Source: Candidatus Hodarchaeota archaeon (GTDB taxonomy: Archaea > Asgardarchaeota > Lokiarchaeia > Sigyniarchaeales > SOKP01). From it: a stretch of 64,000 bases of DNA. The position numbers and the translations under genes are program-made. The DNA is taken from the NCBI GenBank assembly GCA_048887225.1, contig JBHLJY010000004.1, positions 32,001 to 96,000 on the forward strand, read 5' to 3'. Below, one piece after another: positions 12,448 through 16,100 of the stretch (its first letter is position 1; each line of letters starts with the position of its first letter). The notes beneath the pieces were generated by a model. It did not search any database. It saw only the letters and a list, made by a program, of their open reading frames with translations, and was not told the DNA's origin.

Positions 12448-12553
12448 AGAAATATAAAAAATGAGGATAAAAAAGAGAGGATTTCTAAATAGGTTTCAAA
12501 TATTGAAAAAACCAAAAATTTCTTTTAAATTTATTAATTTTATTAATTTAAAT

Positions 12554-12706
12554 GGCCCTCGACGGTCGGATTTTGGAATCGTCTCGTTTTCAAACGATAA
12601 GTGGTCTTCGACGCTGGGCTTCAAACCCAGTTATCCTGCGGAGGGATAGGAGTTCGATAATTGCAAGGATTTTCCTTACTTTTGGAAGTCTCCTCGAGGG
12701 CCGCCA
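12554..12706 (+). tRNA. selC: tRNA-Sec (UCA) with two introns (12571-12600, 12659-12688)
   Basis: 9-bp acceptor GGCCCTCGA/TCGAGGGCC, G73 and encoded CCA; after splicing: 7-bp D stem GTCGGAG/CTTCGAC with TGGT loop, 6-bp anticodon stem GCTGGG/CCCAGT with CT-TCA-AA, long variable arm, 4-bp T stem GGAG/CTCC with TTCGATT (9/4 fold); directly upstream of SepSecS. Confidence 0.95.
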
Positions 12707-12728
12707 TTTTAAGATTTTAATGTGATGT

Positions 12729-14935: not shown

Positions 14936-15119
14936 TGCTCCCGGGGGGATTTGAACCCCCGATTTCTTGGTTTTTTACAAATCGTAAAAATCTCTCAGGT
15001 TTTTACTAAACACAGACAGAAATTTTAAAATTGTATGTCTATGTGTCAATTATAAGACCTGCGCTTGTTGATCAAGCTCATAAAACCTGTGCTTGTTAAC
15101 CAGGCTAAGCAACGGGAGC
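14936..15119 (-). tRNA. tRNA-Ile (UAU) with three introns (15067-15096, 15001-15049, 14964-14993)
   Basis: Spliced product GCTCCCG TT GCTT AGCCTGGTTA AAGC G CAGGT CTTATAA ACCTG AGATC GGGGG TTCAAAT CCCCC CGGGAGC A is a complete cloverleaf; each intron has BHB-like junctions; CCA not encoded. Confidence 0.88.
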
Positions 15120-15261: not shown

Positions 15262-15675
15262 TTGGCTGAAATGATGCAAGACCTTTTAAATTCGATTTAT
15301 AACCGTATCGCACAATTGGGGCAAGCTATTCAAAGTTTAAAGACTACTTTAGACGAGTTAAACCAAAATATTGAGCAAAAAATATCTAATTTAAACGAAA
15401 GAATGTTAGAATTCTCAAAAGAAATTAATACAACTCAAACAATACATATTGACGCTTTAAAAGAGATAGGATTTGAGGTTAAAAGTGAAATAGAAAGAAT
15501 TCGACAAGGGTTGGCACTCGATTCATTCCAGAACATGATTTCATCTCTCGAAAATTTCGAAAAATTAGCTTCTGAAGTGCTTAATCAAGACACAGTGAAT
15601 TTATTATTATCCGAAGCGATCGAATCTGTGAAGAAACTGAAAGAGAATCTACGAGAGGAAGAGGTGAGCGGTTAA
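15262..15675 (+). CDS. Coiled-coil hypothetical protein
   Basis: All-helical heptad pattern; GGTGAT RBS upstream. Confidence 0.7.
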   Translation: MAEMMQDLLNSIYNRIAQLGQAIQSLKTTLDELNQNIEQKISNLNERMLEFSKEINTTQTIHIDALKEIGFEVKSEIERIRQGLALDSFQNMISSLENFEKLASEVLNQDTVNLLLSEAIESVKKLKENLREEEVSG

Positions 15676-15677
15676 GA

Positions 15678-16100
15678 ATGGCTGAACAGCTATTAGATCA
15701 AATGATACAAAAAATTAACGCAATTACGCAATCTTTAGAAGGAACAATTTCTCAAATTCAGAATATGAGCGATACAATCAATAATATAAATCAAAAATTT
15801 AGTGAGGAGACTGTAAGCTTAACAGAAAATATCAGATTAATTGTAGAAGTATTAAAACAATTTCGCGTACAGTCATCTAAAAGTTTAAAAGAATTGTCAG
15901 ATGAATTAAACGACAAAATACAAGATTTATGGGATAAAAATTCTTTAGAATCTATTCTAAAAGAAGAGAAGGACTCACTTGACATAATAAGACAAGGAGA
16001 AATAGCGGTTTCCAATAATTTGTATTACGCTCAATTGCTCTCTATAATTCGCTCTATTAGAGAAGAAACAAATAGGGTATTAAGTGGAAGAAAAACTTAA
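15678..16100 (+). CDS. Coiled-coil hypothetical protein (probable paralog of upstream gene)
   Basis: Similar size and N-terminus (MAEQLLDQ vs MAEMMQDL; NINQK vs NIEQK); GAGGTGA RBS-like motif upstream. Confidence 0.7.
   Translation: MAEQLLDQMIQKINAITQSLEGTISQIQNMSDTINNINQKFSEETVSLTENIRLIVEVLKQFRVQSSKSLKELSDELNDKIQDLWDKNSLESILKEEKDSLDIIRQGEIAVSNNLYYAQLLSIIRSIREETNRVLSGRKT

Follow-up and report, generated by a model that had tools for sequence, protein, structure and literature searches.

Most archaea read the isoleucine codon AUA with a tRNA-Ile2(CAU) that is modified to agmatidine by TiaS, while eukaryotes employ an intron-containing tRNA-Ile(UAU). A third solution, tRNA-Ile3(UAU), is published for Nanoarchaeum equitans, Korarchaeum cryptofilum and ARMAN-2/-4/-5 (PMC8450103, PMC6000648, PMC3239211), in which the UAU anticodon and an intron beside it occur in absence of tRNA-Ile2(CAU) and TiaS, but for which we found no description of a guide element or of the U34 modification. 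In eukaryotes, pseudouridines 34 and 36 of pre-tRNA-Ile(UAU) are made by Pus1 in an intron-dependent manner (PMC11408192, PMC11685878). Multi-intron tRNA genes with several BHB introns per gene, including D-arm introns missed by annotators, are described for Asgard archaea (PMC11291895; bioRxiv 10.64898/2026.10.13.758758), although the main text of the preprint never mentions Ile, UAU or TiaS. Here, we analysed a three-intron tRNA-Ile(UAU) gene in a 64,000-nt stretch of DNA (hereafter the window; contig JBHLJY010000004.1, positions 32,001 to 96,000, assembly GCA_048887225.1) from an Asgard archaeon of the class Lokiarchaeia. It shares the anticodon, the anticodon intron and the apparent lack of tRNA-Ile2(CAU) and TiaS with tRNA-Ile3(UAU), but differs in its three introns, in the position of its anticodon intron (38/39) and in its Asgard host. 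In addition, its anticodon intron, which was never lost among the copies seen, carries a conserved motif shaped like a guide RNA, which we hypothesise to direct conversion of the tRNA's own wobble U into pseudouridine.

The initial annotation had claimed a tRNA-Ile(UAU) interrupted by introns at about 21/22, 37/38-38/39 and 45/46, and this observation was confirmed. The gene (184 nt, CCA not encoded) lies on the minus strand, 15119 to 14936, of a 3.27-Mb, 98% complete genome with 30% GC, where it stands alone between plus-strand protein genes, 0.9 kb downstream of SepSecS. Removal of introns of 30, 49 and 30 nt leaves a 75-nt cloverleaf with 7/4/5/5 base pairs, which ARAGORN calls tRNA-Ile(tat). 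ARAGORN at default settings and Rfam at its gathering score returned nothing in the window, whereas a genome-wide RF00005 search scored the gene at 35.9 bits; hence, the claim that standard finders would probably miss it is only partly true. Exon 1 (15097..15119, positions 1-21) comprises the 5' strands of acceptor and D-stem and the D-loop, and is followed by intron 1 (15067..15096, at 21/22), exon 2 (15050..15066, positions 22-38), intron 2 (15001..15049, at 38/39), exon 3 (14994..15000, positions 39-45), intron 3 (14964..14993, at 45/46) and exon 4 (14936..14963, positions 46-73) with T-arm, acceptor 3' strand and discriminator A73. The anticodon UAU (34-36; 15052..15054, U34 at 15054) is invariant in 26 orthologs.

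Junctions 1 and 3 are fixed by natural variants. Among 30 orthologs of the same family, three lack intron 1 and at least ten lack intron 3, with exactly the predicted joins, while some carry further introns in the D- and T-loops. Central BHB helices between 3-nt bulges were found at each junction, with relaxed outer helices: intron 1 has a 4/4 central helix in all 27 carriers and here a 5-bp inner helix, intron 2 has 4/4, and intron 3 has 3/4 (one mismatch) here and 2-4/4 in orthologs. The anticodon intron sits at 38/39 rather than 37/38 in this family, as U33-U36 pair with GUAA (15003..15006) and the partner of U36 varies between G and A (UG 23, UA 3); in the other Asgard families it sits at 37/38. 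The UAU reading does not depend on that choice. Use of the repeat inside intron 1 as the true exon was rejected, as it would give C21 and G37 and the intron-less orthologs show the other join. The start of intron 1 is a near copy of the intron 1/exon 2 junction (16 of 18 bases, period 28; 15050-15097, minus strand), and orthologous introns keep a degenerate copy of the 5' side of the anticodon arm, a candidate for intron gain by tandem duplication. A second candidate is a tRNA-Leu(UAG) at G000:C26:22815-22928 (minus strand; genome and contig handles of this analysis), whose insert is a near-exact tandem repeat of the D-loop/D-stem exon sequence. Two endonuclease-domain genes were found in the genome. 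In the one RNA run searched, no spliced contig was seen; a single 213-nt wetland metatranscriptome contig (96% alike) covers just the unspliced gene and none of the flanks, but as it has no strand, may be DNA and stems from one study, we did not count it.

We next asked how AUA is read in this lineage. TiaS was not found in the genome by Pfam, tblastn or a custom HMM, nor in 161 genomes of the class, and a TilS-like match stayed below cut-off. About 45 tRNA genes were found, of which two carry CAU, one of initiator and one of elongator Met type. AUA makes up 36.4 per 1000 codons, above AUG at 20.3, so a reader is essential and the gene is the only candidate. A37, A38, A73 and C4-G69 are present, while charging with Ile and reading of AUA but not AUG are inferred. 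In the phylum, 184 of 400 genomes have TiaS. Five further families lack it altogether, and intron-bearing UAU genes were recovered in four of them, including the closed Atabeyarchaeia-2 and an Odinarchaeum-sized genome. A strict D-arm pattern missed genes with D-loop introns, and a looser one gave mostly chance matches, which were checked one by one; none of those checked in TiaS-bearing genomes was a tRNA. With these patterns, no UAU gene was found in the Borrarchaeum family (no TiaS in 5 of 5 genomes, two of them 100% complete) and only one in 19 genomes of another TiaS-less family, which reflects limits of the patterns rather than absences. A CAU pattern applied to 80 Asgard genomes gave only chance matches. 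A GTDB-wide pattern returned about 109 archaeal UAU genes with introns, mostly from DPANN and Korarchaeia, and 0 of 80 such genomes have TiaS. An archaeal-type intron-bearing tRNA-Ile(UAU) (L112) lies in a 1.1-Mb chromosome labelled Omnitrophota bacterium, and many records labelled Methanosarcinales also look like small DPANN genomes; these are probably mislabelled.

The interpretation given in the initial annotation, namely eukaryote-style AUA decoding with a eukaryote-like acceptor stem, was only partly supported. Replacement of the agmatidine route by UAU is supported, but this decoding is not special to the lineage, and the acceptor stem as a eukaryotic signature is not supported. The stem is as claimed and matches vertebrate tRNA-Ile(UAU) in 6 of 7 pairs (PMC12135372). 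However, it occurs in only 9 of 152 distinct UAU genes, most of which begin GGGCC, and is identical to the acceptor of this genome's tRNA-Glu(UUC); it was rejected as an Ile marker as well as a eukaryote marker. Overall identity to the vertebrate tRNA is unremarkable, with 50/75 against 49/74 for the genome's own tRNA-Ile(GAU). Acceptor and T stems switch together among orthologs (genes L014, L018, L025, L085 and L086), and two acceptor types occur in distant Lokiarchaeia families, suggesting exchange of the tRNA top half or repeated convergence. Families whose proteins are labelled Heimdallarchaeota, Hodarchaeota, Njordarchaeales and Wukongarchaeota keep TiaS, and two closed genomes of such families carry tRNA-Ile2(CAU) with no UAU gene found.

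The ACA element in intron 2 had escaped the initial annotation. An anticodon intron is kept in all 52 Asgard copies seen, while the other introns come and go. Exactly 13 nt after a G that can pair with C32, this intron holds an ACA in 28/30 genes of the own family, 13/20 of other Asgard families and 36/83 of named DPANN/Korarchaeia genomes, compared to shuffle means of 0.9, 0.4 and 1.05 (maximum 6 in 5000), and no other position stands out. The same search with C34 instead of U34 yielded 73 introns of sufficient length, of which one has ACA at that place (Fisher 3e-11), and 17 other anticodon introns gave none at position 15. Since the genomes are related, the P values overstate the effect, and a G at intron position 2 is also common in tRNA-Met introns (42/48), so that G alone is not specific. 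As CAU genes share U36 but lack the element, it points to U34. The ACA is dispensable in more than half of the DPANN genes and in both Helarchaeales-type genes, which lack it. A Freyarchaeum-type tRNA-Ile2(CAU) (L224) from a TiaS-bearing genome has a 14-nt intron at 37/38 that keeps a G facing C32 and ACGCT complementary to exon 23-26 but no ACA, possibly a relic of the UAU-type guide.

In Lokiarchaeia, the 13 bases consist of 2-5 guide bases and a 7-10-bp intron stem of unrelated sequence, which covaries (0/500 shuffles). In the window gene, the putative 3' guide UGACA (15044..15048) is followed by the lower-stem strand (15036..15043), which forms 8 bp with 15011..15018 (5 of 8 pairs change on both sides), by one unpaired U and by the ACA (15032..15034). 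The resulting count of 5 + 9 equals the canonical H/ACA layout (PMC4652768). G, A and C of the guide can pair with C32, U31 and G30, whereas its first U faces U33; this base lies 14 nt from the ACA, which makes U34 the inferred target under the 14-16 nt rule (PMC11077068). The guide-target pairing is thus only 3 bp plus a mismatch here, and only 2 bp in two Promethearchaeaceae-type genes. In Odin-, Atabey- and DPANN-type genes, the same 13 bases instead pair with exon positions 21-32, with up to about 10 bp. A duplex between exon 21-33 and the intron beats shuffles in 38/98 UAU genes (mean z -1.5) but in 2/84 CAU genes (z +0.1), and position 29 covaries; in the own family, however, it does not (1/30). 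A 5' guide is not conserved (UUUA fits here), and inspection of the alignment revealed no conserved tandem G-A pairs indicative of a K-turn or K-loop for L7Ae. PUA binds ACA and lower stem (PMC7991803), and the spacing also equals that of T-stem to CCA, which Cbf5 uses on tRNA U55 through the same domain, although the argument from spacing is our inference.

To test for a link to Cbf5, we examined its integrity. The genome encodes Cbf5 with a full PUA domain, Nop10, L7Ae-family genes and Elp3, whereas Gar1 is borderline (28.6 bits against a cut-off of 29.3). Among 100 named genomes, presence of Cbf5 alone did not discriminate (91 have it), but the ACA was found in 35/77 with a full-length Cbf5 match and 1/23 with a short or no match. 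Pfam showed that this one exception has a PUA domain, that 11 of 13 short matches lack one above cut-off, and that one ACA-bearing genome counted as full has no PUA hit. These genomes fall in about six lineages, the split was partly drawn after the first batch had been seen and may track general genome reduction, so we regard this as support rather than proof.

Taken together, we are highly confident that the gene is the only AUA-reading isoleucine tRNA of a Lokiarchaeia genome without detectable TiaS, and that its three BHB-type introns are removed by the archaeal splicing endonuclease is inferred from the motifs and from intron-less orthologs. We consider it somewhat more likely than not that the anticodon intron has a second function. 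The precursor can take the BHB fold (-43.7 kcal/mol) or a guide fold (-40.4), which costs only 3.3 kcal/mol; in this view, Cbf5 with Nop10 and Gar1 would bind stem and ACA through its PUA domain and convert U34 to pseudouridine, either in cis before splicing or with the excised intron acting in trans. Pseudouridine 34 would improve charging by IleRS and shut out Elp3-type 5-substitution of U34, which would favour misreading of AUG. In yeast, the modified tRNA is charged 40-fold better than the transcript and the intron prevents ncm5U34 (PMC11408192); as Elp3 is present in all 16 genomes tested, protection of U34 has a plausible purpose. Our analysis itself establishes structure, conservation, spacing, specificity to U34 genes and co-occurrence with Cbf5, while binding, modification, action in cis or trans and the effect on decoding are inferred.

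Among the alternatives, the strongest, though still unlikely, is that ACA and exon-intron pairing serve another protein or step without involvement of Cbf5, such as a stand-alone synthase of the TruA/Pus1, TruD or Pus10 type, ordered splicing or shielding of U34 from Elp3. Yeast Pus1 makes pseudouridines 34 and 36 only on the intron-containing precursor (PMC11408192), TruA- and TruD-family enzymes are present in this genome and could do the job, and neither K-turn nor conserved 5' guide was found. But a stand-alone enzyme gives no reason for an ACA at the H/ACA distance, five ACA-bearing genomes tested have no or only a fragmentary TruA match, and the ACA tracks Cbf5 integrity. Less likely still, U34 may remain unmodified, as reported for Mycoplasma mobile (PMC3575796), with the motif as an inherited relic without present function. 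Many DPANN genes have indeed lost the ACA or have introns too short to hold it; however, ACA and 13-nt spacing are kept across Asgard classes, Korarchaeia and DPANN while the bases between them and the stem are replaced, and the intron was never lost in 52 Asgard copies. Direct homology to the eukaryotic tRNA, recorded in the acceptor stem, is very unlikely. Yeast tRNA-Ile(UAU) also starts GCTC, the stem occurs in three Lokiarchaeia families and in no DPANN or Korarchaeia gene, and UAU plus an anticodon intron is shared. Yet the stem is rare among orthologs and equals the tRNA-Glu stem of this and of another Asgard genome, and the lineages usually placed nearest to eukaryotes keep TiaS and CAU; if eukaryotes branch in or beside Heimdallarchaeia, the resemblance is an analogy unless a tree shows otherwise. 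A pseudogene (an Atabeyarchaeia-2 ortholog is labelled 'possible pseudo' in the supplement of PMC11291895) or a misparsed tRNA-Leu(UAA) is highly unlikely given the perfect cloverleaf, conserved and compensated stems in more than 150 genomes, lack of another AUA reader, lack of a comparable BHB in the UAA registers, lack of a long variable arm and presence of a separate tRNA-Leu(UAA).

Further tRNA genes with unusual features were encountered. A tRNA-Sec-like gene (UCA anticodon, encoded CCA, apparently two introns) at about 12550-12710 (plus strand) of the window ends about 20 nt before the SepSecS start and was missed by ARAGORN and Rfam. Two different tRNA-Cys(GCA)-like genes occur in one genome (G000:C13:66823-66923, minus strand, and C10:1752-1854, plus strand), and the intron of a tRNA-Tyr (G000:C2:237092-237251, minus strand) has a kinked hairpin followed by bases complementary to positions 29-34. 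Several Asgard tRNA-Glu and tRNA-Gln genes, among them the tRNA-Glu genes at G000:C26:22474-22611 and in genomes G013 and G227, appear to have C instead of U at position 33. Beside the tRNA-Ile gene, two abutting helical proteins of about 140 aa without a family match are encoded at 15262-16100 (plus strand).

Archaea that read AUA with a plain UAU anticodon must avoid reading AUG, and we found no report of how they do it; likewise, literature searches on TiaS in Asgard archaea, archaeal UAU genes and a guide in the tRNA-Ile intron, which left out most subscription journals, revealed nothing on TiaS in Asgard archaea or on such a guide. While the tRNA, its introns and the loss of TiaS are of kinds already known and of modest interest, a guide element in the intron would give a concrete answer, would explain why this one intron is never lost and would show that an ACA-dependent guide can work without a K-turn. 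It also bears on the origin of the eukaryotic intron-dependent pseudouridine 34. As a more far-reaching possibility, which we regard as tentative at best, archaeal tRNA-Ile(UAU) genes from DPANN, Korarchaeia and several Asgard classes may descend from one ancient gene whose anticodon intron is a built-in H/ACA-type guide for pseudouridylation of U34 by Cbf5 before splicing, a forerunner of the eukaryotic route later taken over by Pus1.

In comparison with box H/ACA guides, the element shares a putative 3' guide, the lower stem, one unpaired base, the ACA and a predicted target 14 nt from the ACA, and short self-pairing of 2-4 bp can load a U into Cbf5 there (PMC11077068). It differs in being embedded in a tRNA intron and circularly permuted, in lacking a K-turn upper stem and a conserved 5' guide, and in its predicted target, the wobble U of the host tRNA. 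We therefore do not file it as an H/ACA RNA, but it looks as if it works like the 3' half of one. With eukaryotic pre-tRNA-Ile(UAU) it shares UAU, the anticodon intron and, as predicted, pseudouridine 34, whereas the stand-alone Pus1 reads a helix without an ACA signal; on present evidence the two are compared without implying homology. The box C/D guide in the tRNA-Trp intron of Haloferax and other Euryarchaeota (PMC11408192), which acts in trans after excision, is likewise a tRNA intron that guides modification of its own tRNA at position 34; it directs C/D methylation, to which an H/ACA-type pseudouridylation would be added by the element proposed here.
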